DNA from: an uncultured Gammaproteobacteria bacterium | GTDB lineage: Bacteria > Patescibacteriota > Microgenomatia > Levybacterales > UBA12049 | Direction: 5' to 3' | DNA: 64,000 bases | NCBI GenBank assembly: GCA_964512695.1 | Contig: CAZEJU010000001.1 | Location: forward strand, 7,803 to 71,802 | Part shown: positions 23,729 to 57,711 of the stretch, one piece after another | Position numbering within the stretch: the stretch's first letter is position 1 | Layout of the letters: the number at the start of each line of letters is the position of its first letter | The notes under the pieces: generated by a model | Seen by the model: the letters and a program-made list of their open reading frames with translations, nothing else | The model's database searches: none | What the model was told of the DNA's origin: nothing | Position numbers and translations under genes: made by a program

Positions 23729-23875
23729 TTGACAATAAGCAAAAAGTAGAGTATTATCGGATATAACGATATGCATTATATAAAAGTTGAAAACATGATG
23801 GCAATGATGATGACTTCCTAACGGAGGTGTATCACGTGCTGTTTGTGAACGACCTCCTTACTAGGAGGTTTTTTT
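23729..23875 (+). promoter_or_regulatory. Promoter plus Met-codon leader-peptide transcription attenuator
   Basis: TTGACA(23729)-17 nt-TATTAT(23752). Leader ORF 23771..23821 = MHYIKVENMMAMMMTS. GGAGGU (23823..28) can pair with ACCUCC (23852..57), which alternatively forms the terminator ACCUCCU-uacu-AGGAGGU + U6 (23852..23875). Confidence 0.7.
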
Positions 23876-23886
23876 ATTGTAAAAAT

Positions 23887-25107: not shown

Positions 25108-25113
25108 ATTTAT

Positions 25114-28528: not shown

Positions 28529-28675
28529 TTGACAATTTATAATTGATCTGGTAAGATTATAAGACAAATATGCAACATACGTTTAATTCTATTATTGTCG
28601 TCCTTCTCGTTACCCATTAATTGGGCGGAGGACTCGTGTTAAAAAACGTACCCGCTCAAAGAAGCGGGTTTTTTT
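28529..28675 (+). promoter_or_regulatory. Promoter plus Ile/Val/Leu-codon leader-peptide attenuator
   Basis: TTGACA(28529)-17-TAAGAT. Leader ORF 28570..28620 = MQHTFNSIIVVLLVTH (7 consecutive I/V/L codons). UUGGGCGG (28621) pairs with CCGCUCAA (28652) as antiterminator, versus terminator ACCCGCU-caaaga-AGCGGGU + U7 (28650..28675). Confidence 0.75.
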
Positions 28676-28696
28676 ATGTTTTAAAAGGAGAAATAT

Positions 28697-30556
28697 ATGA
28701 GTTCACATAAAGAATATGCAGGGCAAGCTGCTCTCAAATCCTTAGCTGAAAGATATATTAGAAGGTATGGCTTAAAAGCTGATTTTAATCCCGAAGAGAC
28801 AGGTGGAGTAATTTTCGCTCAAGACGGTACACCACTAAGGCAAGTCCGTGCTCCTTTCTGGAGAGCAGAAAAAGGTGCAAAGGGAACAGGCAGAAAAGAT
28901 ATGCCTAGAGTTTACACTGCTACAAATCCTGACCCGGATAAACCTAACTCAGGATTAGAATTAGAATTCCAAGCTTTCCATGCCATGACAGGAGAAATGG
29001 AACCAGTCATGGATGCAGACCACCCAGTACATCAGGGGTTATTGGAACACAATCGAAAAGCAAAAAATGGACACACTGAAAATAATGGAAATGGACTTGG
29101 AAACGGAAATGGGGTTAATGGATATGTTTTTGTAGAAGACGGCGCTGACTGGGACCATGACTTCCCAACTGGACCTAAAGAAGTAGGATTTAGCCCAGAG
29201 CTAACACGTCATACTTTGGAGGAAAACTTTCCTCCGAATGTAGATTCCGGAACACGAAACAGAGAGACATTATATGGTATTAGCACAGTTGTACAATTAG
29301 CAGAAGCAAATAACACACTTATCTCTCCGTTCTCGACTATACCGCATCGAGATATTACACAAATTGATACGAATCAACATCCATATGTCCAACGCATAGC
29401 GTTCGAACACATGGGTCCCGAAAAAGTTAAACACTTTACAGGTACTTCACTGCAAATTCACGTAGAAATCAAGGATTTAGAGTCAGCTTTACACGCTGCA
29501 AACCGTTGGCAGCTAGTTACACCTATTATGTATGCGGGAACACTTTCAGCACCTTTTATCGCAGGAGAAATAACACCCGATTTACAAGAACGGTATGGTC
29601 AAGTTCCCGACGTGGTTGGCGATCCACTAAAAGAAAGCACATTTGATACTATGACACAAGGACCCCATGAATCATATAGATATTATGGTAGATTAATAGG
29701 ATCACCTTCTGGAGGTGCAATGAGACAGCCTCTACCTGAAACATCTGAAGAATTTTGGTCTGCGGCTAATAATCTTCTAAAATCAGGAGAAAGTCCTTCC
29801 GTGGGTAGAGTAGCAGGACACCATGCAGATTTTCGTATTCGCCCTGACTTGGGACCGTATGGCACAATCGAGTTAGCAGTATTAGATACTGCCGGTGCGC
29901 GCATTCCAAATATCGTAGCCATTCAAGAATTCTCCAGAGCTTTGGGTTGGAAGTTACAGAGACAAGCAGGTAATTGGGAACAAATTATGGAAGATCCTCG
30001 TTTTAAATCGATATTCGGGCAAGCACCTTCTAAGGAAACATTCGAGACTGTTCACTGGAATACTATAGAGGTAGCAAAACATGGAAATAAGGCAATGATT
30101 ACTGGTATGGACGGAGAACAGCATTCTATAGCAGAGTTATGGAGTAAGTTAGTGGAATATGTACAAGAACCTATTGAAGAAACCGGTTATACTGGTTTAC
30201 CGGAAGGTATTATCGAGGTATTAGATAAAGCTTATCAAGACCCATCAGAACTATTTGATGTTTATAAAGACGAAAAAGGAGTTACTTCTGTCAAAGGATT
30301 CTATGAAACCGGAGTCGGAACTATGAGCCAGTGGGCCAGACAACGTGCAGAAGAGTTGAAAGCAAGAGGCTTAGCAGAAAAAGAAGCCATTATCGATACT
30401 ACACTTAATGTAGGCAAAAGCTTTCATGAACATGTAAAGTCAATGACACCCAAAGATCTTAATACTTTATATGTAAGCGCTAACAAGGATGTGGATAAAT
30501 CACCCCAATACAGCGCTAATGGTCAGAATCCATCATACCAAACCACTGCGTCCTAA
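28697..30556 (+). CDS. GCS2-fold carboxylate-amine ligase-like protein, paralogue B (619 aa)
   Basis: SGLELEFQAF, GTSLQIHVEIKD, GHHADFRIRPDLGPYGTIELAVLDTA (close to the GCS2 HWDVRP...T(I/V)E(V/L)RV.D signature). AAAGGAG SD 6 nt upstream. Confidence 0.65.
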   Translation: MSSHKEYAGQAALKSLAERYIRRYGLKADFNPEETGGVIFAQDGTPLRQVRAPFWRAEKGAKGTGRKDMPRVYTATNPDPDKPNSGLELEFQAFHAMTGEMEPVMDADHPVHQGLLEHNRKAKNGHTENNGNGLGNGNGVNGYVFVEDGADWDHDFPTGPKEVGFSPELTRHTLEENFPPNVDSGTRNRETLYGISTVVQLAEANNTLISPFSTIPHRDITQIDTNQHPYVQRIAFEHMGPEKVKHFTGTSLQIHVEIKDLESALHAANRWQLVTPIMYAGTLSAPFIAGEITPDLQERYGQVPDVVGDPLKESTFDTMTQGPHESYRYYGRLIGSPSGGAMRQPLPETSEEFWSAANNLLKSGESPSVGRVAGHHADFRIRPDLGPYGTIELAVLDTAGARIPNIVAIQEFSRALGWKLQRQAGNWEQIMEDPRFKSIFGQAPSKETFETVHWNTIEVAKHGNKAMITGMDGEQHSIAELWSKLVEYVQEPIEETGYTGLPEGIIEVLDKAYQDPSELFDVYKDEKGVTSVKGFYETGVGTMSQWARQRAEELKARGLAEKEAIIDTTLNVGKSFHEHVKSMTPKDLNTLYVSANKDVDKSPQYSANGQNPSYQTTAS

Positions 30557-30590
30557 CAAGTATCAACTATTGTTGTGATACAATAACAAC

Positions 30591-31676
30591 ATGATTCAAC
30601 AAGAAAGGCTTCTAAAAACATTCTTCGATCTTGTTTCAATCGATAGTCCTACAGGTGAAGAAGAACGCATTCGTAACGAACTCTCAAATCGTTTGAAAAA
30701 ACTTGGCGCTGAAACAGTGGAAAAAGATACCTATGGTAACCTCATAGCGAAATTCCATGGTGAAGGTGAACCGCTCATGATTAACTGCCATATGGACACT
30801 GTAGAGCCCGGTAGAGGCATAGTACCAATTATGAAAGGTGATAGAGTAGAAACCGACGGGAAGACAATTCTAGCGGGTGATGCAAAGGCAGGTTTAGCGA
30901 TTATCCTCGAAGCCTTAACTTCACTAAAAGAAGAAAATAAAAAACATGTACCTATCGAAATCGTCTTTACTGTAGAGGAGGAAACTGGACTTTATGGAGC
31001 TGTTAACCTCGACTATTCAAAAGTCTCCGCAAAAAAAGGATTTGTTTTTGATGGTTCAAAAGATCCTTGTACCTTAACCACATCAGCACCGGGATATTAT
31101 AGAGTCGATGTTACAATCATAGGAAGAGCGGCTCATGCGGGAGCCGAACCTGAAAAAGGTATTTCAGCTATTAAAATCGCTTCTGATATTATTACGAAGC
31201 TCGAGGTAGGCAGAATTGATGAAGAAACTACGGCAAACGTCGGTATTATAGAAGGCGGAAGCGCCCGGAATGCAGTACCAGAAAAAGCACATTTTAAGGC
31301 AGAAATTCGAAGTAGAAAGCTAGAAAAGCTTGAAAAACATGCAGGTCATTTCCAAGAAGTTTTTGAGGAAGCGATGAAGAAACATCCTGAAGCGAAAATA
31401 GAGATAGACATGCATTTAGAATTTAATCCATATATTTTCGATGAAAACCATCATGTTATTCAGCTTGCGAGTAAAGCGTTAAGCGAACTAGGACAAACAC
31501 CGAAACTTGCACCTTCGAATGGAGGATCCGATGTCAATATTTTTATTTCACACGATATAGAAACAGTGGCTGTAGGAATTGGCGATTATAATGCTCATAC
31601 AACCCGCGAATACGTCGTCATATCTGAAATAGTGTTAGGAGCTAGACTCTGCGAAAAACTCCTTGAGGCGAAGTAA
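30591..31676 (+). CDS. M20-family metallopeptidase (peptidase T / tripeptidase-like)
   Basis: SPTGEE, CHMDTVEPG, LAGDAKAGLA, EEETGLYGA, RAAHAGAEPEKGISA: M20 metal-ligand motifs. 34 nt after paralogue B, so likely the same operon. Confidence 0.75.
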   Translation: MIQQERLLKTFFDLVSIDSPTGEEERIRNELSNRLKKLGAETVEKDTYGNLIAKFHGEGEPLMINCHMDTVEPGRGIVPIMKGDRVETDGKTILAGDAKAGLAIILEALTSLKEENKKHVPIEIVFTVEEETGLYGAVNLDYSKVSAKKGFVFDGSKDPCTLTTSAPGYYRVDVTIIGRAAHAGAEPEKGISAIKIASDIITKLEVGRIDEETTANVGIIEGGSARNAVPEKAHFKAEIRSRKLEKLEKHAGHFQEVFEEAMKKHPEAKIEIDMHLEFNPYIFDENHHVIQLASKALSELGQTPKLAPSNGGSDVNIFISHDIETVAVGIGDYNAHTTREYVVISEIVLGARLCEKLLEAK

Positions 31677-31759: not shown

Positions 31760-32107
31760 TTGACACGTCATTAACCTCATGGTAGAATTACTATAACATA
31801 CGAATAACAGCGTTGATCCAGTATGGATGGGACTGGGGATTCTCCTTCATTAAAGTTACGCAAGGAGAGCGCTGGGTCTAATCAACCCCGGAGGCGAAAC
31901 CGTAAAAAGATCAGCAACATGTGTCATAGCTGCAGATAAGCACTGATTAAAAGCTGATTCTCGCTGATATAGAGCATGTCATGAATGAGAAGTCCTCCCA
32001 CGCCAAAGCTCCGGAGGATAAAACAAGGTGGCACCGTCCTTAAATAAACGTGGGACCCTTGTAAATAACTACAAAGTAATTTTGTGGTTGTTTACAAGGG
32101 TTTTTTT
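31760..32107 (+). promoter_or_regulatory. Promoter plus T-box-like leader (antiterminator bulge UGGC; specifier not resolved)
   Basis: TTGACA(31760)-17-TAGAAT. ACAAGG-UGGCACC-GUCC..GGAC-CCUUGU (32023..32062) is a T-box-type antiterminator with a 7-nt bulge. Its 3' strand is shared with a 14-bp terminator CCCUUGUAAAUAAC/GUUGUUUACAAGGG + U7 (32056..32107). Confidence 0.6.
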
Positions 32108-32108
32108 A

Positions 32109-33278: not shown

Positions 33279-33422
33279 TTGACATTACACATGGGCTATC
33301 CTATAATCATTTATATGATACGACAAGCAGTAAATTTCTTTTTCTTTTTTACCCCACTCGCGGGGAGGTAATTTCGTGATCACACGAAATACTCTATACC
33401 CCGCATAAGGCGGGGTTTTTTT
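33279..33422 (+). promoter_or_regulatory. Consensus promoter plus Phe-codon leader-peptide attenuator
   Basis: TTGACA(33279)-17-TATAAT(33302). Leader ORF 33315..33371 = MIRQAVNFFFFFTPLAGR, with its ATG only 7 nt after the -10 (leaderless). CCCC/GGGG (33352/33362) 1:2 hairpin. GCGGGG (33360) can pair with CCCCGC (33399), versus terminator CCCCGC-auaag-GCGGGG + U7 (33399..33422). Confidence 0.8.
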
Positions 33423-33435
33423 ATGGAGGAATTCT

Positions 33436-35136
33436 ATGGCAATGACTGAACAAGACATACTAAAAGGTACAATGAACGGCCGAGTTGATTCAGGTTTAAA
33501 GGCAACTGATAACACAGCAGTACCTTTAGGTGAACAATCTCATGGCGGCATAGTCCGAAATACCGATGGACTATGGTGGCTACCTGCCTCACCACATCGC
33601 GGAAGGGGTTTCGAATGGCAAGACTCAAAGGATCCTAGATATAACGCAACACATTTAAGTGAAGTTGGCTACCACCCTGAACCTCTAGAACCACAGAGAA
33701 CCGTAGAAGTATTAGCTGAACATTTACAAGAAAAAGTTGAAGGAAGAATTCCGGAAACAGAAACCCATGGAGTTGAAGTTGAAGGGACTACCTATGATCG
33801 AGAAGGCAATCTCTTAGCAATTCCTGTCGATCAGAAAACAAATCCCGAATTATTAGCTTCTACACATGAAGAAGCCACAAAACTGGAAAACGGACAGTAC
33901 CCGAGAAAACCATTTGAAATAGCTCGAGCAGTAGCCAGTGCAACCCAGCGGGGTATCGCAATCGCTGAAAATCATAGCGGAATACTTGTCCTCACAGAAG
34001 TACCAGAAGGTGGAACATTTCATGATGCTGAAAACAGTACATTTCCATATATAGTACGTCAACAAGGAAGAATTCGAAGACACGCATTAGCACACCTTGA
34101 TGAGATACCTGAAGAAACATGGGCTCTCTATCGACGTTACGGCGTAGATATTCGAGAACTACTGGAATCTAATAGACCGCTCAATTGGCCTACTCATGGA
34201 TTGCATCATCATGCCGGTGCGCCACAAATAGAAGGATTAGTCGACCCGAGAGCCGCACTGGTTATGGGAAAAATGCGTCAAACACTTTTTGCAAAATTAC
34301 TGCAATACCCAGCATTTAATAGCAGTAGATTATATGAAAAAGAAACTGATCTCCGCGGAGTCCGATCTGTCGCAAAACACGCGCTTGCTACAACAGTTAA
34401 TAATGATTTACCTGATAGTGCTGAAGAGCTAATGTGGGATGTGCAACGGGCAATGAGAGAGGGAGAAATCGCTACGCCTTCACGATATCCTTATAAAGGC
34501 CAACACGATGTCGTTCGATTTAGGATGGATGGAAAACATAAAACTGTCGAGTCTATTAAAGATCCTATGACACCTGACCTATTAACAGCGCTTCATCTCG
34601 TGTTCGGCAATCAACTCCTGGATACCATCGGCCAGCAAGCTCTCGTACAAGTAGGTGGAGATGAAAGCAAAGTTATGGGTTATTTACAATCTATACATCC
34701 TGAGCTTTTTGCCACATTGCCTTCATTAGGTCCTGAGTCATCACATAGTGCAGATATGCAGTTTAATAAAGCAGGGTATCTAGGAACATTCCGCGGGAAA
34801 ACTTATGCTGAGCTTATAAGAGATGCACGTGCTGTCGTGGAAGGGGTAGGCAAACATTATACAGCACTTGAGACACAAGCTAAAATTGTAAATCACGTAC
34901 TAGGATACCAAACAGATATTCCTCATCCACAGACTGATCTAGCAACATTTATGGGAATAAAAAATGGAGTTTACCAACCAAATAGTATGAGAGCAGGAAT
35001 TCTAACGGATTATAAAACGGGTATTCCTACAAATGAACTGTTAGTTGTCCAGGCTGAAGCAACGAAATTACAAGCTCAAGCTTTAGCACAAGTGAGAGAT
35101 GATAAAGATCTTCTCGAAGTGTATGGATTACAGTAA
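33436..35136 (+). CDS. GCS2-fold carboxylate-amine ligase-like protein, paralogue C (566 aa)
   Basis: HGVEVEGTTY, THGLHHHAGAP, GQHDVVRFRMDGKHKTVESIKDPM. GGAGG SD 6 nt upstream. Confidence 0.55.
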   Translation: MAMTEQDILKGTMNGRVDSGLKATDNTAVPLGEQSHGGIVRNTDGLWWLPASPHRGRGFEWQDSKDPRYNATHLSEVGYHPEPLEPQRTVEVLAEHLQEKVEGRIPETETHGVEVEGTTYDREGNLLAIPVDQKTNPELLASTHEEATKLENGQYPRKPFEIARAVASATQRGIAIAENHSGILVLTEVPEGGTFHDAENSTFPYIVRQQGRIRRHALAHLDEIPEETWALYRRYGVDIRELLESNRPLNWPTHGLHHHAGAPQIEGLVDPRAALVMGKMRQTLFAKLLQYPAFNSSRLYEKETDLRGVRSVAKHALATTVNNDLPDSAEELMWDVQRAMREGEIATPSRYPYKGQHDVVRFRMDGKHKTVESIKDPMTPDLLTALHLVFGNQLLDTIGQQALVQVGGDESKVMGYLQSIHPELFATLPSLGPESSHSADMQFNKAGYLGTFRGKTYAELIRDARAVVEGVGKHYTALETQAKIVNHVLGYQTDIPHPQTDLATFMGIKNGVYQPNSMRAGILTDYKTGIPTNELLVVQAEATKLQAQALAQVRDDKDLLEVYGLQ

Positions 35137-36930: not shown

Positions 36931-37152
36931 ATGTCTTCCGAAAAATATCATCATGTACATAAAGGAAAGATTGAGATTTTCATCAATAATTTTACAGGCG
37001 GAATTGCCTGGGGATTAGGAGCAAGTGTAGGTGTATCAATCCTATTTACGATTCTCGGTTTTATAGCAACTCAAGCAAATCTCGTTCCCTATATAGGAAC
37101 ATTTGTTTCACAAATTATCGACTTCGTGTTAAAACATAACAAACATTTTTAA
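36931..37152 (+). CDS. Small membrane protein
   Basis: 73-aa ORF with two hydrophobic helices (GGIAWGLGASVGVSILFTILGFIA..). Confidence 0.4.
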   Translation: MSSEKYHHVHKGKIEIFINNFTGGIAWGLGASVGVSILFTILGFIATQANLVPYIGTFVSQIIDFVLKHNKHF

Positions 37153-37163
37153 TAACTGCTGTA

Positions 37164-37296
37164 TTGACGAACTGTATGACTCATGGTATATTGCTCAAAT
37201 ATATGAAATCCACTTTTTTAGTTTGTTGTGTTACAACTCTGCTTTAAGGGGTTGTAGTTATCGTGGAATATGCACCCCGCCAAGCGGGGTTTTTTT
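37164..37296 (+). promoter_or_regulatory. Promoter plus leader-peptide attenuator with tandem Cys codons (specificity tentative)
   Basis: TTGACG(37164)-17-TATATT. Leader ORF 37203..37247 = MKSTFLVCCVTTLL. GGGG (37248) immediately after the stop can pair with CCCC (37275), versus terminator CCCCGC-caa-GCGGGG + U7 (37275..37296), directly abutting the gene's ATG. Confidence 0.55.
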
Positions 37297-38289
37297 ATGA
37301 GAAACTTATTAGAATTAGGAATTTTCGAAACATACGGAAATGGTGGAGGAGCAATTACCAAAGATAGAGTATCTCCTCCTATTTATCCAGTAGATGCTAA
37401 TTTAGGTGAATGGAGGATACTAGCAACTGATCATGAAAGAGAATTCCCGGGCGAGCATCTCGAACGTGCTTTTGAAGTGATAAAGCAATGGCAGGAAGTA
37501 TTTCCTCGGGAAGATACCTGGATTAATCGTGCGTATGGTATTCCGTCACCGATTATTAAACTCGATGCAACAATTACTAATAATGAATTACAGGTGTATG
37601 AAGTAGAAGATAGACCAGCAGGAATGGGTTATAGCGAATTAATAAATCCTGACTTACGAACAAATTTTGCTGATATTGTATCTACTTGGCCAGATTTCCG
37701 AGTCGTCGTTTCTCCTCAAAGATCTGGAAATGACGATCATTTATGGGCAAAGCCAGCAGAAGCAGATTGGCATGGTCTAGTTCTCGTCCGGGCAGAACCG
37801 TCTGAAGAAGAATTCCATGCATTACAGCGAAGATCCATAAGTACTCTGCTTACAGAAGGAGACAAATCGTATGGTGAAAAAATGGGTTTATGGAAAAGAG
37901 TTCATACAGCAGATGAGATAGATTTTTCACAAGGTTTTGTCGTCAAGCCCACCCAAGGAAGCAAAGGGAATGGTGTGTATGTATCTTTACCGAAACAATA
38001 CATGAAAGAACATGGGATCGACCCAGGTAGAAATGGCGTAGCTACTGCAGGGAAAATACGAGGTGTAATCGATACTGCAGCAGCAAATGGAGGAGTCTTC
38101 GTACAACAATATCATCCTCCTATGGAAACAGGTATCCCGACCCATCCCTGGGCAGTAAACCGGTTATTCTTCGGGTATGATATGCAAAATGGAGAATGGA
38201 GATATATAGGGGGAACATGGAATGCTCGAAATAATTTGAAAATTCATGGAGCTAGTGATACATTAACTGGCCCGTTAAAAACGGTATAA
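37297..38289 (+). CDS. ATP-grasp-like ligase (330 aa)
   Basis: GFVVKPTQGSKGNGVYVSL (ATP-grasp K-P-x-x-G-S-x-G-x-G-V strand), ..VFVQQYHPP... Start set at the ATG abutting the terminator U-tract. Confidence 0.5.
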   Translation: MRNLLELGIFETYGNGGGAITKDRVSPPIYPVDANLGEWRILATDHEREFPGEHLERAFEVIKQWQEVFPREDTWINRAYGIPSPIIKLDATITNNELQVYEVEDRPAGMGYSELINPDLRTNFADIVSTWPDFRVVVSPQRSGNDDHLWAKPAEADWHGLVLVRAEPSEEEFHALQRRSISTLLTEGDKSYGEKMGLWKRVHTADEIDFSQGFVVKPTQGSKGNGVYVSLPKQYMKEHGIDPGRNGVATAGKIRGVIDTAAANGGVFVQQYHPPMETGIPTHPWAVNRLFFGYDMQNGEWRYIGGTWNARNNLKIHGASDTLTGPLKTV

Positions 38290-38346
38290 AAAAAATTGAT
38301 TAGATTTTACTTCACTTACCCTCGGTTCGTAAACGTAAATGCTCTC

Positions 38347-38492
38347 TTGACGTCCAAATAGATATAACTCTATAATACAAAGTGTTCTATATGAATATCA
38401 TGAATAACAATGGAGCAGTAAAGAAGAACCTCTCGTAAGAGGGGTCTTTCTGTTGTCTGCACAATAGTACCCCTTACAGAAGGGGTTTTTTT
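38347..38492 (+). promoter_or_regulatory. Promoter plus Asn-codon leader-peptide attenuator
   Basis: TTGACG(38347)-18-TATAAT(38371). Leader ORF 38391..38438 = MNIMNNNGAVKKNLS (5 Asn in 15 aa). CCUCU/AGAGG hairpin over the stop codon. GAGGGG (38439) can pair with CCCCUU (38470), versus terminator CCCCUU-acag-AAGGGG + U7 (38470..38492). Confidence 0.65.
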
Positions 38493-38615
38493 ATGGATTT
38501 TTTGCTGAACCAATAGTTCTACTTAGAAATCCAAATCCTCCAAAAAGCGCTCTTCGAGCCGCAGTTCAAATGAACTAAAGCGGAAAGGAAGCTTAGGAGG
38601 ACAAAGCTTTACATT

Positions 38616-39899
38616 ATGAAAGAAGGACTAAAAGTATTATCACACTCATCTATAGAGGAATATCTATTCGATACTGATGTCGAAGACCGATATTATATTC
38701 CGTGGCGTGCAGCCGCAGAAGCAGCAGCAAGAATCGAACTAGGACAACAAGTTTTGACAATCCTTCCAAAACGTGAAGCTTTTAACGAATACCTCACCCT
38801 TTTACAAATGAAATTACTGGGAGGAAGAAGTATTCCAACGCTGTTTACACCTGATGAAGATTATCTTATGGATACTGATATTAAAAAATATCTTATGGAT
38901 ACTCTTCGTGGCAGATTTAACAGAAGTACCACTATTCATCCCTATCAAGCAACACCTGAATTTTATGATTGGGCGGGGGAGTTAGAACAGAAAGGCGTTA
39001 AAATTTACGCAGATAGAAAACGCAAAGACTTACGTGACTGGTGGGGACATAAAGGAGCATATCATCGATGGATAGATGATCTCGATACTCCCACTCAATT
39101 TGAAGGATTACATTTACCAATACCTCGAGGATACGTGGCTCAAAACCATGGAGAATTACTTGTAGCGAAAAAACTTCTACCAACTGACACTGTTGTGGCA
39201 AAACCAATTTTCGGAGCTGGTGGATTTCAAATAGAGTTCTTAGACGACGATAATATCGATACATATGAATGGCCTACCGACCCCACAACGGAAAAACCCA
39301 TGCCAGTTGCTGTACAAGAAAGACTAAGAATTGGTCGAGATGAATTCGGCGAACGTGTTTTTTCCTACCAGTTTGAGGGCCCACAACCAATGGGACGATT
39401 AACACGACAAATTATGGATCAGGAAACTGGGAAAGTCTGGAGTGGGAATAGAGTACCAGCAGATGTTACACCTGAGTTTGAACGAAGAGCAAAGGATGTA
39501 GTTCATACTTTAGTCATGAAAACAAAACCAAAAGGAGACGGGGGAGTCGATATAGCAGATGTAGATGGAGAACCAGTAATCATCGAAGTAAACGGAGGAA
39601 GGCCAACTGGCGCACATATGCCGAAACGATTTCAACAAGCCTTCGCGCCTGAAGCTCCACATTTCGTATTTCAGAAAGTAGAACCAAACGGATATTCACC
39701 ATTCGATATTTGGGATAGACTCGAAGGAGGAAACTTGCCTCGCACGAATGAAACTCTAGTATTTCAGCGTGAAAGACAACGCGGGGTTTTTCCATTAGTT
39801 TGGTTACCGAACTCTTGGGGAATGCTTGCAAGCTTCGGAGGATCATTCGAAGAAGCAAATAATCAGTTACTCGCAGCTCGTGATAGAATAGGCGTATGA
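38616..39899 (+). CDS. ATP-grasp-like ligase (427 aa)
   Basis: VVAKPIFGAGGFQIEFL, ..GGVDIADVDGEPVIIEVNGGRPTG.. (ATP-grasp C-terminal E-x-N region). AGGAGG SD. Confidence 0.5.
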   Translation: MKEGLKVLSHSSIEEYLFDTDVEDRYYIPWRAAAEAAARIELGQQVLTILPKREAFNEYLTLLQMKLLGGRSIPTLFTPDEDYLMDTDIKKYLMDTLRGRFNRSTTIHPYQATPEFYDWAGELEQKGVKIYADRKRKDLRDWWGHKGAYHRWIDDLDTPTQFEGLHLPIPRGYVAQNHGELLVAKKLLPTDTVVAKPIFGAGGFQIEFLDDDNIDTYEWPTDPTTEKPMPVAVQERLRIGRDEFGERVFSYQFEGPQPMGRLTRQIMDQETGKVWSGNRVPADVTPEFERRAKDVVHTLVMKTKPKGDGGVDIADVDGEPVIIEVNGGRPTGAHMPKRFQQAFAPEAPHFVFQKVEPNGYSPFDIWDRLEGGNLPRTNETLVFQRERQRGVFPLVWLPNSWGMLASFGGSFEEANNQLLAARDRIGV

Positions 39900-40966
39900 C
39901 TGAGAAAAGGGTAGTACAAATATTTTTCGATTTAGTAAAAATTGACAGCCCTTCTGGACATGAAGAGAACGTTTTAGAGTATATAGAAGCATATTGCAAA
40001 AAACTCTCACTAAATACACAGAGGGATTCTTATGGAAACCTCATCGTTAAAAAAGAAGGAGTAGGTGAACCACTACTTCTCTGTTCACATGCCGATACAG
40101 TAGAACCAGGGAAAAATATTCAACCACGAATAGAGAACGGAATTATAAAAAGCGATGGTACGACGATACTTGGTGCTGATAATAAATCGTCTATTGCAGC
40201 GATTCTCGAGGCTGTGAAACAATTAGTTGAAGAAAAAAAACACCATAGGCCTCTAGAGCTTGTGTTTACAAAATCTGAAGAAGTTGCTAGCTGGGGAGCA
40301 GTATATCTGGACTACAAACAACTTCAAGCAAAAGAAGGATATACGATAGATAACGCAAATCCTGTAGGAACAATTGTCTACGCGTCTCCTTTTTACTATC
40401 GTTTCGATATTACAGTATTCGGTAAAGATGCCCATGCTTCAAGACCGCATGAAGGAATTCATGCTTTAAAAATCGCTGCAAGCGCCATTCATAAAATAAA
40501 ACTTGGAAAAATTGATACAAATACACTTGCCAATATCGGCATGATCCAATCAGGCCATGTACGCAACACAATTCCAGGTTCAGTAGTGCTTATGGGAGAA
40601 GTACGAAGCTATTCCGATGAGAAAGCTCAAAGGTACTTAAACAAAATTATTGATACATTTAGAAAAACTGCAGAAAAAACGGGAGGATCTATAACGTACG
40701 AAACGCTGAAAGAAAATGCTGGGTATATATATAAAACAAATGATCCCTTTGTAAAAAAAACGATGCAGATTATGAAAAAGATTGGAGTAGAAACGAACTT
40801 AATTAAAACTCTGGGCTGTGCCGATGCAAATGTGATCCAAGAGCATGGAATTAAAATGCTCGACCTGGGCGACGGCTCACGCAGAGCGCATACACTAAAG
40901 GAGTCAATACCGGTAGCACAGTTACAAAGAGTCGTTGAGCTAGTATTAGCTCTTGCTGGAGCATAA
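39896..40966 (+). CDS. M20-family metallopeptidase (second copy, peptidase T-like)
   Basis: SPSGHE, SHADTVEPG, LGADNKSSIA, KDAHASRPHEGIHA. ATGA start/stop overlap with the upstream ATP-grasp gene. Paralogue of 30591..31676. Confidence 0.75.
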   Translation: MTEKRVVQIFFDLVKIDSPSGHEENVLEYIEAYCKKLSLNTQRDSYGNLIVKKEGVGEPLLLCSHADTVEPGKNIQPRIENGIIKSDGTTILGADNKSSIAAILEAVKQLVEEKKHHRPLELVFTKSEEVASWGAVYLDYKQLQAKEGYTIDNANPVGTIVYASPFYYRFDITVFGKDAHASRPHEGIHALKIAASAIHKIKLGKIDTNTLANIGMIQSGHVRNTIPGSVVLMGEVRSYSDEKAQRYLNKIIDTFRKTAEKTGGSITYETLKENAGYIYKTNDPFVKKTMQIMKKIGVETNLIKTLGCADANVIQEHGIKMLDLGDGSRRAHTLKESIPVAQLQRVVELVLALAGA

Positions 40967-41085
40967 AACCATACACTCTTCACCCTCCCTTTTCGAATTT
41001 ACGTGAACACTTCCCGAGGTTTGAATAGAAACCAACCTCCCAGGTTGGCAACTAGTAATTTGAGGACTTGCTTAAGGGAGCGTTT

Positions 41086-41204
41086 ATGCGATATACTTTC
41101 TTCAACATGAGTAAATCAGTTTTCGGAACTACCACTACAACAACCCTTTCCTAAGGGAGGTTGGCGTGGTATTATTTAACAACCTCCTTAATAGGAGGTT
41201 TTTT
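41086..41204 (+). promoter_or_regulatory. Thr-codon leader-peptide attenuator
   Basis: AGGGAG SD, then leader ORF 41086..41154 = MRYTFFNMSKSVFGTTTTTTLS (6 consecutive Thr codons). CCCUU/AAGGG 1:2 hairpin. AAGGGAGGUUG (41153) pairs with CAACCUCCUU (41180), versus terminator CCUCCU-uaau-AGGAGG + U6 (41183..41204). The terminator is nearly identical to that of the Met leader. Confidence 0.8.
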
Positions 41205-41322
41205 ATTGGGGAGAACACGTATCCGTCAGCTGAGGGATACCACGATAGAATCCCATGGATTATTGCATGGAATCCTATCGCCCCGGTGTACGTCAGGACT
41301 GAAAGCTGACCACAAATAACAT

Positions 41323-43107
41323 ATGACAAACGAACAAGAACTAAAAATAGGAGGACAAAAATCAGCGACGAAAGTTGATTTCGCTCATGCTGAGCATCCT
41401 TTAACCCATGCACGTCTTTATGAAGCAGTAGAAGAACGACGTGGTACCGTAGGTCCTGTAGGAGATGTTCCCAGAGCATATATAAGGGACTCTGCAACTG
41501 CGGCAATTATAGTAAGCACACCTTCAAAAGAGGTGGTTGCTGCTGTTCGATCACCTCTATGGATTCCTAGTGGTGTACGAAATGGAAGAGTAGAATTTGG
41601 TGGAAGACCAGATAAAGATCATATCGAATTTTCTTACTTACGTGAAACTGATTGGGAGTATGTAAAAGAATCTGCGAGGAAAAGATTAGACGCACTTAAA
41701 AAAGCCACAAAACTTAACGAATTTGTTGCTGAGCATGGAGGCTATCTCGGTATAGGAACAGAGCCGGAAGCATTTCTCCTTCATGAAGATGGCAGTGTCG
41801 TACAGATAAACGCTGGAGAGTCATTTTTAGGCCAGAGAGAAGACGCTCTGCCACCGATAGCGACACCCAGAGAGTATGCCCGCGCACGAGCGGAACTTAT
41901 TCAAAATCGAAGACAGCAATTACAGGCTGGTCAAATTGCCTTCGACGGCTCAGTTCGACCTACGGGGAAGATGAGCGAAACAAGAATAACCCAAGAAGGT
42001 GATGAAGCAATATATAATGTAGCTATCACGCAAGCGCTCCATACACGATACACCCATTGTGCAGATCCATTAACACGACAAATCATGGATCAGCTTGCTA
42101 AAACAGAAAACTATAGAGATTTTGACGAAATCTATAATCATGCTTCAACGATAACATACTGGGGTCCTCCCTCTGCATCGCATGCAGCTATAGGAATGCA
42201 TCAAAGACGCGAAAATGGGACAACCTTTGTACCAGAATGGGAAGCAGTAGCTCATGCAGATGTCATAAATAGCGATTTCGCAACTGCTGATGAACTACTG
42301 ATGATGTCAACGCCAGTCATATTCGGAGAACAACCTCAAGTTTTACATAAAGGTACATGGAGAAAACCACGCGACTATCGTCATTTTATGCGACATGTCG
42401 TTGACACTACCTATCCAGCACCTTTTGTCGGCTCGCCAGAAGCATTACGAGCAAATGTTACCGACAGTATACTCTCCGGCAGATCGCACACACTTGATAG
42501 ATCTGCATATACTGCAGATGTACATGGTTTATTAGTCCCTAACTATCATGGAAGAGTACGGATTAGACAAAAGGTTGATGTTACTCATAAAGGAGAAATT
42601 AAACAATCATGCCGTATAGAAGAAACAGGATGTTCACAGTCCGCATCTTTACCTGATGAATTGGCAAGAAATGCACTTATGCAGCTTAGAGCTGTTGCTG
42701 TCGACGAAGCCCTCGCAGCAGGTATGCATCCCTCTGAATTCTATAAAGAGAAATATCCGCATATGACAACTTGGCAAAAGCAGCAAGATATCGTACTCCA
42801 TGCAAATCTCTATGGTTTCCGACATCCTTTACCATCTGCTGTGATAATGGAAAATATTAGGCTTGTACGAGATATCGGTAAGAGATATCCTGTACTCGGT
42901 CTTCAAGCCGTACTCGCAGAAACACGCTTGAGAAATTTATTTGATGATCCAGCACGCTCTTTAGAAGTTTATGAACAAAAACCTATTGGTCCATTTAGCG
43001 AAGTTCTCCAGAATGAATTACATAATGGTACTTCACCTGTAGAACTCGCTCAAAAAGTAGCCGCTTACCAGGATACAGTAGCGGAAAAGATATTAAGAGT
43101 TCCATAG
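41323..43107 (+). CDS. GCS2-fold carboxylate-amine ligase-like protein, paralogue D (594 aa)
   Basis: YLGIGTEPEAFLLHEDG, SASHAAIGMHQ, NYHGRVRIRQKV...SCRIEETGCSQSA. Lies between the Thr attenuator and thrS. Confidence 0.55.
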   Translation: MTNEQELKIGGQKSATKVDFAHAEHPLTHARLYEAVEERRGTVGPVGDVPRAYIRDSATAAIIVSTPSKEVVAAVRSPLWIPSGVRNGRVEFGGRPDKDHIEFSYLRETDWEYVKESARKRLDALKKATKLNEFVAEHGGYLGIGTEPEAFLLHEDGSVVQINAGESFLGQREDALPPIATPREYARARAELIQNRRQQLQAGQIAFDGSVRPTGKMSETRITQEGDEAIYNVAITQALHTRYTHCADPLTRQIMDQLAKTENYRDFDEIYNHASTITYWGPPSASHAAIGMHQRRENGTTFVPEWEAVAHADVINSDFATADELLMMSTPVIFGEQPQVLHKGTWRKPRDYRHFMRHVVDTTYPAPFVGSPEALRANVTDSILSGRSHTLDRSAYTADVHGLLVPNYHGRVRIRQKVDVTHKGEIKQSCRIEETGCSQSASLPDELARNALMQLRAVAVDEALAAGMHPSEFYKEKYPHMTTWQKQQDIVLHANLYGFRHPLPSAVIMENIRLVRDIGKRYPVLGLQAVLAETRLRNLFDDPARSLEVYEQKPIGPFSEVLQNELHNGTSPVELAQKVAAYQDTVAEKILRVP

Positions 43108-43197
43108 GTACAAAGATGCAAGGTTCTACCGTAGTTCTCTGTAACATAAGATCTTCGTAACTATGCAACTATTCGCAGGTATGTTATAGTACAGCTT

Positions 43198-44937
43198 ATG
43201 GATAATAACGAAAAATTACAAAACTTACGACACTCAACAGCGCATTTACTTGCGGCTGCAGTCATGGAATTATGGCCTGATACGAAAAGAACAATAGGTC
43301 CTGCGATAGAAACTGGATTTTACTATGACTTCGATTTCGTAAAACCAATCTCAGTGGAAGACCTTCCTAAAATCGAACAAAAAATGCGGGAAATTCTTAA
43401 GTCATGGACAGGATTTATCAAAGAAGAAGTCTCAATAGAAGAAGCAAAAAAGAAAGTAGCAGGAAATGAATATAAACTCGAACTTATAGAAGAATTCGCG
43501 AAAGATAATAAAACCCTTACATTCTATACATCAGGTAATTATGAAGATTTATGTAAAGGCGGTCATGTAGAAAATCCAAAAATGGAAATCGGAGCATTTA
43601 AACTCCTCTCTCTCGCAGGCGCGTACTGGCGGGGAGACGAGAAAAACAAGATGTTAACTCGCATCTATGGTACTGCTTTTCCGACGAAACAAGAATTAGA
43701 AGAGTACCTAACCATGCTTGAGGAAGCGAAAAAACGAGACCATAAAAAATTGGGGAAGGAACTAGATCTCTTTATTTTTTCTCCTCTTGTAGGAGGGGGA
43801 CTTGCACTCTGGACACCCCGGGGGACAATTATTCGTGAAGAATTAGATAATTTTATTTGGCATATAAGAAAAAAGTTCGGTTATCAGAAAGTAACAATTC
43901 CTCATATTACAAAAAAAGATCTCTATGAGACATCCGGACACTGGGAAAAATTTGCAAATGAACTATTTAAAATCCAAACCCGTGAAGAAGATTTATTTGC
44001 GATGAAGCCTATGAATTGTCCTCACCATACACAACTCTACGCTTATAAACCTCGAAGCTACCGAGAGTTGCCACTACGTTATTCAGAAACAACTATGTGC
44101 TATAGAGACGAGCAAAGCGGAGAACTAGCTGGTTTATCCCGAGTTCGTGCTTTTACACAAGACGATGCGCATGTTTTTCTCAGAAAATCGCAAATAGAAG
44201 AAGAATTCTTACGAACTTGGGATATCGTAGATGATTTCTATAAAACTTTTGGCTTTGAGCTGAGAGTAAGGCTCTCACTTCATGATCCTGAACATATGGA
44301 AAAGTATCTAGGCGATGCGGGAATTTGGAAGGATGCTGAATCAAAAATTCGGGCGGTAGCAGAAAAAAGAAAAGCTAATACTTTTGAAGGAATTGGTGAA
44401 GCTGCAATGTATGGACCTAAACTAGACTTTATGACAAAAGATGCTCTTGGACGTGAATGGCAAGTAGCTACCATTCAACTTGATTTAAATCAACCAAAAC
44501 GCTTTGGCTTAACATGTATTAATGAAGAAGGAAAACAAGAAGACATCGTCATGATGCATTGTGCGGTTATGGGATCAATCGAAAGATTTGCTTCGATTTT
44601 AATCGAACATTACGCGGGAGCATTTCCACTCTGGCTTGCGCCAGTTCAAATCGAACTTTTACCAATAGCTGATCGCCATACAGAATATGCCCAATCAGTG
44701 TATAATCAGCTATCTGCAGCCAATATTCGTGTAAATCTTAATACCGAAAAAGCAACACTCCAGGCAAAAATACGTGAGGCTACTTTACAAAAAGTACCAT
44801 TTATGGGTATAATAGGCGATAAGGAAATTGCTGCAGAAGCGATTTCAGTCCGAACAAGAGAAGGAAAAGATGTCGGCCAACAACAGGTTGGTACATTTAT
44901 AACGGAGTTACAGGAAAAAATTGATAAAAAAGAATAG
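43198..44937 (+). CDS. thrS: Threonyl-tRNA synthetase (no N-terminal TGS domain)
   Basis: HSTAHLLAAAV editing-domain motif, class II motifs (..FRDEQSGELAGLSRVRAFTQDDAH.., ..GSIERF..) and an anticodon-binding C-terminus. TATAGT sits 7 nt before the ATG and there is no SD. Confidence 0.9.
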   Translation: MDNNEKLQNLRHSTAHLLAAAVMELWPDTKRTIGPAIETGFYYDFDFVKPISVEDLPKIEQKMREILKSWTGFIKEEVSIEEAKKKVAGNEYKLELIEEFAKDNKTLTFYTSGNYEDLCKGGHVENPKMEIGAFKLLSLAGAYWRGDEKNKMLTRIYGTAFPTKQELEEYLTMLEEAKKRDHKKLGKELDLFIFSPLVGGGLALWTPRGTIIREELDNFIWHIRKKFGYQKVTIPHITKKDLYETSGHWEKFANELFKIQTREEDLFAMKPMNCPHHTQLYAYKPRSYRELPLRYSETTMCYRDEQSGELAGLSRVRAFTQDDAHVFLRKSQIEEEFLRTWDIVDDFYKTFGFELRVRLSLHDPEHMEKYLGDAGIWKDAESKIRAVAEKRKANTFEGIGEAAMYGPKLDFMTKDALGREWQVATIQLDLNQPKRFGLTCINEEGKQEDIVMMHCAVMGSIERFASILIEHYAGAFPLWLAPVQIELLPIADRHTEYAQSVYNQLSAANIRVNLNTEKATLQAKIREATLQKVPFMGIIGDKEIAAEAISVRTREGKDVGQQQVGTFITELQEKIDKKE

Positions 44938-45502
44938 ATATCAACAAGAAAATAAAAAGTTTTATCGGACGAATGAGCGGATATTCGCACAAACGCTCAG
45001 GGTTGTCGATTCTGAGGGAAAGCAAATAGGTGTTTTCTCCAAACAAGAAGCGTTAGAAAAAGCGCGAGAAGAAGAGTTAGACCTTGTTGAAATAGCGCCA
45101 CAAGCGCAACCACCTGTAGCAAAAATCATAGATTTCCGAAAATTCCTCTATCAAGAAGAAAAAAAGAAAAAAGAAGAGAAAAAGAAAGCTAAAACCAGTG
45201 ATACAAAAGAAGTTCGACTCGGTCCTTTCATGTCTGACAACGATTTACAGGTCATGATAAACCGATGTAGAGATTTCCTAACAGAAGGAGATAAAGTACG
45301 ATTAGTCGTTAAGTTTCGAGGAAGACAAGTTACTCGATCAGATTTCGGTTTCGGTGTCGTCAAAAAAGTGATAGCAGCCGTTAACGATATTTCAAAAGTC
45401 GATAAAGATGCAAAAATGGAGGGGAGACAAATAGTAGCCGTTCTCTCTCCAGAAAGGAAAAAACAACATGGGCAAGATCAAAGTGAGAAAATCAGCAGCT
45501 AA
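44921..45502 (+). CDS. infC: Translation initiation factor IF-3
   Basis: ..NERIFAQTLRVVDSEGKQIGVFSKQEALEKAREEELDLVEIAPQAQPPVAKIIDF... The start codon is uncertain (non-ATG, overlapping the thrS end), as is usual for infC. Confidence 0.8.
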   Translation: MIKKNRYQQENKKFYRTNERIFAQTLRVVDSEGKQIGVFSKQEALEKAREEELDLVEIAPQAQPPVAKIIDFRKFLYQEEKKKKEEKKKAKTSDTKEVRLGPFMSDNDLQVMINRCRDFLTEGDKVRLVVKFRGRQVTRSDFGFGVVKKVIAAVNDISKVDKDAKMEGRQIVAVLSPERKKQHGQDQSEKISS

Positions 45503-45665
45503 ACGTTTTAAAGTTACAAAAACAGGTAAAGTCATGCATGGTTCACAATATAGTAGTCATTTAAAACTACATAAGTCAAAAAGACGACTACGACGACAAA
45601 AAGAACCAACTGCATTAACAGGTGAATTTGCAAAGAAAATTAAAAGAATGCTCGCAGTGGGGTAA
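45468..45665 (+). CDS. rpmI: Ribosomal protein L35
   Basis: MGKIKVRKSAAKRFKVTKTGKVMH.. Confidence 0.9.
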   Translation: MGKIKVRKSAAKRFKVTKTGKVMHGSQYSSHLKLHKSKRRLRRQKEPTALTGEFAKKIKRMLAVG

Positions 45666-45737: not shown

Positions 45738-46085
45738 ATGAGAATAAAAAGAGGGATGGTATCCCGAAGAAAACACAACAAACTATTAGGATTAACCAAA
45801 GGGTATCGTGGAACGAAAAGTAAACTCATAAAAGTGGCTCACGAAGCTGCGCTACATGCTGGCGCATACGCATTCCACGGTAGGAAACTTCGTAAACAGA
45901 ATTTCCGATCACTCTGGACTGTCCGTATAAGCGAGGCTTTAAAAACTGAAGACATGTCTTACAGTGTATTCATCAATAAATTAAAAAAGGCCAACATCAC
46001 ACTTGATAGAAAAATTCTCAGTGATCTCGTCGTAAACGATCCAGCCACATTTAAACACATTGTCAATTCGGTAAAAACAGAATAA
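45738..46085 (+). CDS. rplT: Ribosomal protein L20
   Basis: MRIKRGMVSRRKHNKLLGLTKGYRG.. Confidence 0.9.
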   Translation: MRIKRGMVSRRKHNKLLGLTKGYRGTKSKLIKVAHEAALHAGAYAFHGRKLRKQNFRSLWTVRISEALKTEDMSYSVFINKLKKANITLDRKILSDLVVNDPATFKHIVNSVKTE

Positions 46086-55810: not shown

Positions 55811-56331
55811 TTGACGTACTATAGGGAATATAGTATCATTATTTAACAATTTATAAAGGCTATGACGAAGTCAAAGTAGTTTTCGCAGAGTGACACCAGA
55901 GAGAAGACGTCGCTGCAAGATCTTCCGTATCTTCGAAAATGAATTACGCTTCTGAGCTGTATGCCGAATCCGTTAACCGATGGATAGGCAGAACCGGGTT
56001 CGCACCGTGATAGCGAAAGAATGTGTCGCAGAAGAAGTGGAGCATTCGAAAATAAGCGTTTATCGTATTACTTCGAATCCCTTCATAAGGGATTTTTTAT
56101 TGCTAAGATAAGCGAAACCGAGGTGGTACCACGGAGAAAAATTAAAAGGTAAAAGGTAAAAATTGTATAAGGAAAGATAGTAGTAATTTTACTTTGGACT
56201 TTTGACTTTACACTTTTAACTTTCTTGTTCCGTCCTTGAGAATCATTATTGTTCGAGTGAAGTGAGAGTTATTTTTTACACATAAACTTCTCATTTTGTT
56301 CGAAGAATAGTATTTCTGGGACGGTTTTTTT
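55811..56331 (+). promoter_or_regulatory. Promoter plus T-box leader, probable Tyr (UAC) specifier, with unusually large inserts
   Basis: TTGACG(55811)-17-TATCAT. Stem I base GCUAUGACGAAG/CUUCUGAGC with AGUA...GAA flank and UAC+G at 55945..48. AGAGA box. F-box CCGUUA (55970). T-box GAGGUGGUACCACGG (56119..34). CGAGG-UGGUACC-ACGG pairs with CCGU-CCUUG (56230..38). Terminator arm CCGUCC/GGGACGG + U7 (56230..56331). Confidence 0.6.
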
Positions 56332-57711
56332 ATGAAAGACAATGTACTATCAACTGAGCAAGAACAAGAAAACGAGTTAGAGATGCATGAAGCTTTCCAC
56401 AAGCAAGTACATGCAGTTCTAGAATCTGAAGACAGATTCAGAAAAGCTGAAAGAACAACGAGAATTGGCCTTGAAGCCGAATATAGTGTCATAAATGCAA
56501 CGTGTGATCAAGTAGACCAAACAGTCAGAGATCAAATTATTGAAGACAATAGAGACTTCGCTACCCAAGAGTTAGGGGCAGCACAAATTGAATTACGAAC
56601 TGACCCTATTATCCTTTCTGATGGAGGAATCTGGCAGGTATTTGACCAGATGGCATCTAGAGATGACGCTATAAGGAATGCGGCACATAGACGGGGTGCG
56701 CGTATACTGAGAAGCGGCACAAACCCCTTAGTCGATCTTCATGACATACTAAGAACTGATAAACCAAAATACCGGCAAGTACCTGATTTCCATAATAGAA
56801 AGAGAAAGTTTGGCACAGACACAACAATTGGCAATGGAAAAAGAGTTGATGTAGGAGACGCTGCTGTAGTTGCACTCTTAAACTCTTTGCAGACGAATAT
56901 AGAAGCTGTAGATTTCGCAGATGCCACAGATAAATTAAACAGATCGTTAATGATTGGACCGTATGTTACTGCAGTCAGTTCCGGGGCACGGTATATCGCT
57001 CATCAAGACGCAGGCTTAGCTGATTTACGAATTCTTGCTTGGGAAACGAGTCATGACACGAGAACTGACTCAGAGAGAACACTAGGTGAAAAAACCAGAG
57101 TCGGACTGCCAGCACGATACTATACTGATGTAAAGGATTACTTTACACAAGTGGGATCATATCCATTTATTCTCCATAATCCAGAGGCAGCACTTCAAAT
57201 AGGAATCGGTCTTCATTGGAGAGATACACGGTTAAAAGTAATAGGGGACAGCCTTGTGGTAGAATTCCGTCCCATATCTGCACAGCCAACATCTGCAGAA
57301 AATGTAGCTTCTGCTTTATTTTATACAGGAAGACTACATTGGTCTCAAGCCACAAACGAACCATTGCTGCCGTTTGATAAAGTAGAACATAATAGAAAAC
57401 AAGCACTACACGAAGGCCCTAGAGGGACTATGTACTATACAGAAGACAATAATGTACAGCGATATAAAGCTCCAGAAATCATAAAACTAGAATTAGCGAG
57501 AGCAAAACATGGATTAGAGATGATAGGTTGTCACCCAAAAGATATTGAACCATTCTTTTCAGTTCTAGAAAAAAATCTCGATGAAGGTACACCTGCTGAA
57601 CGGATGCACAATGTCGTATCACGTCTCACAGAAAATGTTTCTGAGAAAGATAAAAAAGAGGCTACACATGATGCTCTTATCACAGCCATTCAAGTCTTAC
57701 AATTCGTATGA
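56332..57711 (+). CDS. GCS2-family carboxylate-amine ligase-like protein, paralogue E (459 aa, the most canonical copy)
   Basis: RIGLEAEYSVIN, GLHWRDTRLKVIGDSLVVEFRPISAQPTSAENVASALFYTG matches the GCS2/YbdK signature closely. Confidence 0.7.
   Translation: MKDNVLSTEQEQENELEMHEAFHKQVHAVLESEDRFRKAERTTRIGLEAEYSVINATCDQVDQTVRDQIIEDNRDFATQELGAAQIELRTDPIILSDGGIWQVFDQMASRDDAIRNAAHRRGARILRSGTNPLVDLHDILRTDKPKYRQVPDFHNRKRKFGTDTTIGNGKRVDVGDAAVVALLNSLQTNIEAVDFADATDKLNRSLMIGPYVTAVSSGARYIAHQDAGLADLRILAWETSHDTRTDSERTLGEKTRVGLPARYYTDVKDYFTQVGSYPFILHNPEAALQIGIGLHWRDTRLKVIGDSLVVEFRPISAQPTSAENVASALFYTGRLHWSQATNEPLLPFDKVEHNRKQALHEGPRGTMYYTEDNNVQRYKAPEIIKLELARAKHGLEMIGCHPKDIEPFFSVLEKNLDEGTPAERMHNVVSRLTENVSEKDKKEATHDALITAIQVLQFV

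Follow-up and report, generated by a model that had tools for sequence, protein, structure and literature searches.

Predicted threonine-responsive leader-peptide attenuator upstream of a ligase-like gene and thrS in a Patescibacteria-type genome

We analysed a stretch of 64,000 nucleotides, hereafter the window, from contig CAZEJU010000001.1 of assembly GCA_964512695.1 (positions 7,803 to 71,802). Within it, a short leader open reading frame (ORF) carrying six consecutive threonine codons precedes the gene of a 594-residue protein, here called D, which is followed in turn by thrS, the gene of threonyl-tRNA synthetase (ThrRS). Its sequence, its alternative RNA pairings and its presence in related genomes support a four-segment, ribosome-mediated transcription attenuator responsive to threonine. 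We consider it probable that this element, responding to charged tRNA-Thr, gates the ligase-type protein D, and that thrS is transcribed mainly from a promoter of its own, with a share of read-through from the attenuator.

The threonine leader and its alternative hairpins

All features of the locus, from the leader promoter to rplT, lie on the + strand. The first-pass annotation, made by a model from the letters of the window, placed the leader ORF at 41086-41154, where it indeed reads MRYTFFNMSKSVFGTTTTTTLS up to its stop codon. However, its conserved short form, MSKSVFGTTTTTTLS, occupies 41107-41154, and translation probably starts at the internal ATG 41107 and not at 41086. This start is favoured because a predicted sigma-70 promoter, TTGCTT-18 nt-TATACT (41068-41097), sits inside the longer ORF and because the conserved peptide begins at 41107. 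The promoter ends 9 nt 5' of this ATG; with a start site deduced from consensus spacing, we infer a nearly leaderless transcript.

The six threonine codons, ACT ACC ACT ACA ACA ACC, are found as described at 41128-41145 and make up the sensing element. Across the six frames of the window, this T6 run and its reverse-complement V6 are the sole runs of six identical residues; from the threonine frequency, the chance expectation for a six-threonine run in 64 kb is about 0.002.

Four segments of the leader RNA can form mutually exclusive hairpins. Segment 1, CCACUACAACAACCCUU (41132-41148), contains threonine codons and pairs with segment 2, AAGGGAGGUUGGCGUGG (41153-41169), which overlaps the stop codon and has either segment 1 or segment 3 as its partner. 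Segment 3, CAACCUCCUU (41180-41189), provides both the 3' arm of the antiterminator and the 5' arm of the terminator. An antiterminator overlapping the leader stop codon had been noted before, and the pairing is there: AAGGGAGGTTG (41153-41163) shares bases with the UAA stop codon (41152-41154) and has its complement in CAACCTCCTT (41180-41189). So is the terminator said to follow it, with a G+C-rich 8-bp stem AACCUCCU/AGGAGGUU, the loop UAAU and a U tract (41181-41204); in DNA letters, AACCTCCT-TAAT-AGGAGGTT spans 41181-41200 and the T run then reaches 41204. The 1:2 hairpin, in which the threonine codons pair with segment 2, is an extra element absent from the first-pass annotation.

The minimum-free-energy fold of 41107-41206 consists of hairpins 1:2 and 3:4, with -33.5 kcal/mol (z -4.9 against dinucleotide shuffles), and the leader region is folded far more stably than shuffled sequence (z -4.5 to -4.9), none of 200 shuffles doing as well. 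To mimic ribosomes at set positions, we folded the RNA after masking it to 14 nt beyond the A-site codon. For a stall at any of threonine codons 1-5, the terminator is replaced by the 2:3 antiterminator (-14 to -22 kcal/mol); once the ribosome stands at Thr6 or on the stop codon, the terminator forms (-11.7 kcal/mol), and RNA folded free of ribosomes adopts hairpin 1:2 together with the 3:4 terminator. The element thus shows the marks of a leader-peptide attenuator: a codon run for one amino acid, a terminator before the gene, an exclusive antiterminator, and conservation of both run and stems. An Rfam search of the D leader returned no known RNA family and no T-box. The spacer from the terminator to the D start codon (41205-41322) has no Shine-Dalgarno sequence; its portion 41205-41290 is strongly structured (z -3.6, 0 of 200 shuffles as good).

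The sequence, alternative pairings, energies and conservation of the switch are observed; we infer the ribosome stalling and the read-through by which it would work. Transcription would begin at TTGCTT-18-TATACT, and the near-leaderless RNA would be translated from ATG 41107. When Thr-tRNA is abundant, the ribosome would reach the stop codon and cover segment 2, the 3:4 terminator would form and transcription would stop before D; on RNA carrying no ribosome, the 1:2 hairpin and the terminator would both be expected. When Thr-tRNA is scarce, a ribosome stalled on threonine codons 1-5 would mask segment 1, so that segments 2 and 3 pair and D is transcribed. This four-segment logic is that of the trp and thr attenuators.

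Conservation of the element and control of thrS

Relatives are designated here by L numbers. The closest counterpart of the locus, L002, is a metagenome contig of 3 kb with a D homologue of 76% identity. Its order is a promoter TTGCTT-18-TATAAT (8 nt 5' of the leader ATG), the leader MSKSIIITTTTTTLS, the attenuator, the D homologue and thrS. The leader keeps MSKS...TTTTTTLS followed by the stop codon, along with all stems and the same predicted fold; an in-frame stop precedes its ATG, and it contains Ile codons as well. The TTTTTT run is therefore kept in a homologous leader, a point on which the threonine reading could have failed, while the spacer between terminator and D is not conserved.

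L014, the nearest genome, with a ThrRS of 89% identity, lacks D and carries a homologous attenuator directly 5' of thrS: a promoter TTGACT-18-TATATT, the leader MKKLFKINTTTFF with TTT, and stems alignable to those of the window. One and the same attenuator element would thus act on a ligase gene in the window and L002, and on thrS itself in L014. The structure, the simulated ribosome positions, the threonine run of L002 and the homologous attenuator of L014 together support the threonine-responsive attenuator proposed in the first-pass annotation. Two metagenome scans returned no further D orthologue. Over 104 N-terminal ThrRS residues, the window is nearest to L014 (87%), with L002 slightly further (84%). 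Because the ThrRS of the window and L014 are closest to each other and L002 falls outside, these thin data suggest that the order attenuator-D-thrS may be ancestral to all three and that L014 may have lost D and the promoter. L014 also carries a transposase gene (rve) in this region.

Downstream of D, the cluster thrS-infC-rpmI-rplT is as previously described, according to Pfam and the coordinates. thrS (43198-44937) encodes a ThrRS of 579 residues with tRNA_SAD, class II core and anticodon-binding domains; infC (44921-45502, as listed), rpmI (45468-45665) and rplT (45738-46085) come next, and pheS and pheT follow. Pfam assigns thrS, infC, rplT, pheS and pheT, and the order of the thrS-infC-rpmI-rplT(-pheST) cluster recurs in L014, L016, L018, L020 and L022.

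The end of D and the start of thrS are separated by exactly 90 nt. As noted earlier, this gap shows no obvious terminator: no terminator-like site was found on its + strand, and the spacer is unstructured (z 0.2). The TATAGT reported 7 nt before the thrS ATG, where no Shine-Dalgarno sequence is seen, is likewise present at 43185-43190, as part of an extended -10, TGTTATAGT (43182-43190), the predicted promoter of a leaderless thrS mRNA. A TGnTATAGT motif stands 6-13 nt 5' of the ATG in five other thrS loci, L002, L018, L020/L021 and L022/L023; in four of the five, all but L002, the genes upstream of thrS are unrelated to D. The L022 sequence TGTTATAGTACAGCT-ATG is nearly identical to the thrS start region of the window, TATAAT stands 9 nt before thrS in L016, and the thrS of L014 is without the TATAGT element.

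The first-pass annotation had left two options for thrS, shared threonine control and an internal promoter. Since the extended -10 is kept in relatives with neither D nor attenuator upstream, thrS expression appears to be autonomous, and the sequence comparison favours the leaderless internal promoter as the better supported of the two. Shared threonine control may nonetheless contribute, because no terminator separates D from thrS, and L014 has the attenuator on thrS itself. Our reading is that thrS would combine constitutive leaderless expression, mostly from its own extended -10, with a threonine-responsive share from transcripts that pass the attenuator and may also enter thrS. Operator control of the E. 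coli type was set aside for thrS, whose predicted mRNA has essentially no 5' untranslated region.

As to synteny, the immediate adjacency of D and thrS is kept only in L002 and is not seen in genomes whose ThrRS is 69-89% identical. A wider neighbourhood is preserved: in L005/L018 a D-like gene with a hydrophobic leader, an M20 peptidase gene, IlvA (threonine dehydratase), RidA, DUF5665 and thrS follow one another, so that the D-like gene, M20, DUF5665 and thrS lie within a few kb. The Gammaproteobacteria label of this contig (CAYRUR010000006.1) is probably wrong, as gene order and proteins match the Patescibacteria loci. L015 keeps the M20 gene (cut by the locus edge), DUF5665 and thrS. In L014, L016 and L022, DUF5665 precedes thrS by between a few hundred bases and about 1 kb, and the window interposes about 6 kb (36933-43198) made of three attenuator-controlled units: an ATP-grasp-like gene, an ATP-grasp and M20 pair, and D. 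Attenuator-controlled genes seem to be gained and lost especially readily here.

Protein D, its family and the competing readings

Protein D (41323-43107) is a divergent carboxylate-amine ligase-like protein of the GCS2/YbdK fold. An AlphaFold2 model built from an alignment of 66 family sequences (predicted local distance difference test 93.5, predicted template modelling score 0.94) has a glutamine synthetase / glutamate-cysteine ligase-type catalytic fold, preceded by an N-terminal extension (residues ~1-110) and followed by about 150 residues (~440-594) that form a helical C-terminal domain. Neither D nor any of the 66 family members matches a Pfam profile, PF04107 included; D has no NCBIfam match, and the family profile finds no sequence match in the PDB. 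D thus belongs to the superfamily that shares this fold and falls outside PF04107 as defined; the GCS2 fold assigned to it earlier is borne out by the model. Compared with YbdK/GCS2 ligases (PDB 1tt4 and 1r8g; PF04107), with which it shares about 12-14% identity, D is some 240 residues longer; the N-terminal extension, the C-terminal helical domain and the predicted gating of expression by an amino-acid-specific leader set it apart from YbdK.

In D numbering, E166, E173, R393, R413 and E433 are invariant across the 66 members, and E147, E149, Y231, H287, D351 and R353 are at least 90% conserved. These Glu, His, Asp and Arg residues would fit an intact metal- and ATP-binding site. D is a putative ATP-dependent enzyme of the carboxylate-amine ligase type.

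A word-indexed homologue search gave D just two relatives, and with an alignment as query it still returned only three proteins; the family was delineated by an exhaustive hidden Markov model search. With only 147 clusters at 50% identity in that search, it is a rare family. A scan of a genome collection, queried with the alignment of the D clade, gave 11 loci, ten of them labelled as Patescibacteria, Candidatus Roizmanbacteria or Microgenomates metagenome-assembled genomes; the eleventh, L005, is labelled Gammaproteobacteria and has a gene order like that of the other loci. Judged by these relatives, the window too probably belongs to a patescibacterial lineage. The window itself holds three further members, paralogues A (25114-26868), B (28697-30556) and C (33436-35136).

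In nearly every family member with readable upstream DNA, the gene comes after a promoter, a short ORF and a terminator; the type of leader tracks the clade. Leaders rich in Ile, Leu and Val (for example, MKFRVLSVIILVLLITA) stand before D-like genes, and Phe runs (FFFFF or FFFFFF) before C-like genes, recurring in L001, L003, L007 and L008, with a less clear copy in L010. Within the family, the threonine leader is restricted to D and its L002 orthologue. Relative to relatives with Ile/Leu/Val leaders, D shows the motif changes GGELQ to AGESF, TGRIEFTGCS to SCRIEETGCS and HGRVRNR to HGRVRIR, which would fit a changed specificity. An M20 peptidase gene lies 3' of the family gene in L003, L005, L006, L007, L009, L010 and L012, as well as after paralogue B. 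Since the leaders of this clade mark genes that supply the named amino acid, D may be tied to threonine supply; by weak analogy, it may act on threonine or a threonine conjugate and so serve the supply of threonine to ThrRS, not its consumption.

The first-pass annotation held that a paralogue placed immediately before a cognate synthetase gene recurs at tyrS. A GCS2 gene does stand directly before tyrS: just 12 nt separate the end of the coding region for a Pfam GCS2 protein of 459 residues (56332-57711) from the tyrS start codon at 57724 (tyrS, 57724-58920). As this protein is not profile-detectable as a member of the D family (the comparison with the D family profile was not significant), the word paralogue and the parallel itself hold only at superfamily level. 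Upstream of the GCS2-tyrS pair, a sub-threshold T-box candidate at 55853-56072 scores 58.2 bits against a gathering value of 93 (E 3.5e-12), and the tyrS locus gives no hit at the Rfam gathering threshold (RF00230). Its probable specifier, read from the alignment, is UAC (Tyr), with the core GGTGGTACC at 56122-56130. A terminator-like hairpin is found near 56075-56101 and a second terminator near 56230-56330, upstream of the GCS2 gene; TATACT 6 nt before the tyrS ATG mirrors the thrS arrangement.

Two other accounts of the regulatory element deserve consideration. The hairpins, which lie 120-240 nt 3' of the M20 stop codon (40966), might be the mere terminator of the upstream ATP-grasp/M20 operon, with the threonine run a chance product of an untranslated ORF. 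However, the run is far above chance and is kept in L002 while the terminator-D spacer is not, the alternative pairing is precisely placed relative to the threonine and stop codons, the element has its own conserved promoter, and at least four more leaders of like build with different amino-acid runs are found in the window; we hold this account to be extremely improbable. A more serious possibility, though one we would not bet on, is that attenuator, D and thrS, possibly with infC-rpmI-rplT, form a single threonine operon, in which the attenuator belongs to thrS, D is a passenger and read-through is the main control. It draws on the terminator-free D-thrS interval, on L014, where at 89% ThrRS identity the homologous attenuator sits directly on thrS and TATAGT is missing, and on the same layout at the tyrS locus, with a T-box-like leader, a GCS2 gene and tyrS 12 nt further on. 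Against it speak the extended -10, kept in relatives with neither D nor attenuator upstream, and the 90-nt gap devoid of a Shine-Dalgarno sequence; moreover, the 104 ThrRS residues, thin as they are, suggest that L014 lost D and the promoter secondarily.

The attenuator gating D, with thrS mostly on its own promoter, remains our preferred reading, and several points weigh against it. Threonine leaders are found at two D loci and one thrS locus, too few for covariation statistics. In a promoter scan, the number of promoter-like sites did not exceed that of shuffled sequence, and the -10 elements are assigned by their match to the consensus. Neither D nor thrS has a Shine-Dalgarno sequence, so that translation of thrS from a long read-through RNA may be inefficient. 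Finally, a ligase using threonine, as in making a threonine amide, would consume the scarce amino acid; the idea of supply draws on regulatory logic and on the analogy with a Met leader before a SAM hydrolase-like gene (S-adenosylmethionine, SAM). This last difficulty would be avoided if D were a hydrolase resembling Dop of the pupylation system, its GCS2/glutamine-synthetase-type active site cleaving an amide such as a gamma-glutamyl or N-acyl threonine conjugate and freeing threonine, with M20 peptidases in the same salvage route. Induction by scarcity fits a releasing enzyme better than a consuming one; M20 genes follow the family gene in seven relatives' loci and after paralogue B, and the attenuator with the Met-rich leader precedes a gene whose reaction, judged from its Pfam family name, would free methionine. 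On the other hand, YbdK and the glutamate-cysteine ligases outscore Dop, the sequence of D does not separate ligase from hydrolase, and D itself has no M20 gene downstream, so that we regard a hydrolase as unlikely.

Broader still, and put forward tentatively as a conjecture that may well fail, the D family, the attenuated ATP-grasp ligases and the M20 peptidases could constitute an unrecognised system of amino-acid acquisition or biosynthesis in Patescibacteria. Its paralogues would be side-chain-specific (Thr, Ile/Leu/Val, Phe, possibly Tyr), each switched on when its own amino acid is short, and D would be the threonine member recruited beside thrS.

Other leaders of the window and known attenuators

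About nine amino-acid-specific switches appear in this stretch of the genome, mostly on orphan ligases. A Met leader, MHYIKVENMMAMMMTS (23771-23821, six Met), lies behind TTGACA-17-TATTAT and before a terminator at 23851-23870, all within 23729-24684; the gene after it, with a likely start at 23887, is SAM hydroxide adenosyltransferase-like (Pfam SAM_HAT_C). The arrangement suggests a Met-sensing attenuator, and the enzyme under its control would free methionine in its reaction. The unit 28529-31676 comprises the Ile/Val/Leu leader MQHTFNSIIVVLLVTH (28570-28620), a terminator (28650-28669), paralogue B and a PepT-like M20 gene (30591-31676). In the unit 33279-35136, a perfect TTGACA-17-TATAAT stands 7 nt before the Phe leader MIRQAVNFFFFFTPLAGR (33315-33371), which is followed by a terminator (33398-33416) and paralogue C.

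Closer to D, the short ORF MKSTFLVCCVTTLL (37203-37247; two Cys, three Thr) has a promoter before it and a terminator at 37274-37290 (unit 37164-38289). The next gene, with a likely start at 37297, is unannotated and encodes 330 residues with an ATP-grasp-like KPxxGSxGxGV motif. The unit 38347-40966 begins with TTGACG-18-TATAAT and the short ORF MNIMNNNGAVKKNLS (38391-38438; five Asn), continues with two hairpins and a terminator (38469-38486), and ends with an ATP-grasp gene (38616-39899) and a PepT-like M20 gene (39896-40966); this operon may respond to Asn.

Leaders of about 280 nt at 24795-25113, before paralogue A, and at 31760-32108, before a DUF3182 gene, each have a promoter and a terminal intrinsic terminator. 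Neither has an Rfam match, and that of the DUF3182 gene contains a T-box-like core, GGTGGCACC, at 32027-32035. In L015, just after rplT, positions 7913-8030 hold a Tyr/Phe-containing short ORF, beginning MQKLIKQVSYFYSFYFTT and running to the terminator region, with its terminator. It precedes an operon that opens with a weak match to DAHP (3-deoxy-D-arabino-heptulosonate 7-phosphate) synthase and goes on with chorismate mutase and prephenate dehydrogenase/dehydratase; this would be an attenuator responsive to aromatic amino acids and placed before genes of a recognisable biosynthetic pathway. Predicted leader-peptide attenuators are common in this clade, and their leaders mark genes that help to supply the amino acid in question.

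The threonine element resembles E. coli thrL in its run of threonine codons within a short leader, its exclusive 1:2, 2:3 and 3:4 pairings and its intrinsic terminator. In thrL, which has Ile codons as L002 does, read-through occurs when charged tRNA-Thr is scarce, as predicted here. Unlike thrL, the element would control an orphan GCS2-fold ligase-like gene and possibly thrS, not thrABC; it is probably near-leaderless, belongs to a Patescibacteria-type genome and shares no sequence similarity with thrL. A likeness also exists to the leaders of synthetase genes such as E. coli pheST/pheM, where a cognate leader precedes the synthetase gene, as L014 has it for thrS. His leaders occur before hisS paralogues in bacilli (PMC2965389). 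In contrast to these two cases, the window has a 1.8-kb ligase gene and a second promoter between attenuator and thrS. As in T-box control of thrS and tyrS in Firmicutes, a shortage of charged tRNA would relieve a terminator before a synthetase gene; the threonine element would sense it through ribosome stalling and not through tRNA binding.

A survey of 2010 described leader-peptide systems in Proteobacteria, Actinobacteria and Firmicutes (PMC2965389), and the literature we searched contained no relevant paper linking leader peptides, attenuators or T-boxes with Patescibacteria or the candidate phyla radiation. The attenuation mechanism itself is textbook; what is new is the Patescibacteria-type host, an orphan ligase family with clade-specific leaders, and an apparent transfer of an attenuator between a ligase gene and thrS.

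Patescibacteria are generally considered poor in genes for amino-acid biosynthesis. As predicted from the sequence, a genome of this type uses textbook leader-peptide attenuation, and its leaders label genes of unassigned role by amino acid (Thr, Ile/Leu/Val, Phe, Met and probably others). The locus would also document a switch of target by an attenuator, which stands before a ligase gene in two of the genomes and before thrS itself in another. For each of its clades, an orphan family of 147 clusters with no Pfam domain thereby gains a specific, testable substrate hypothesis.

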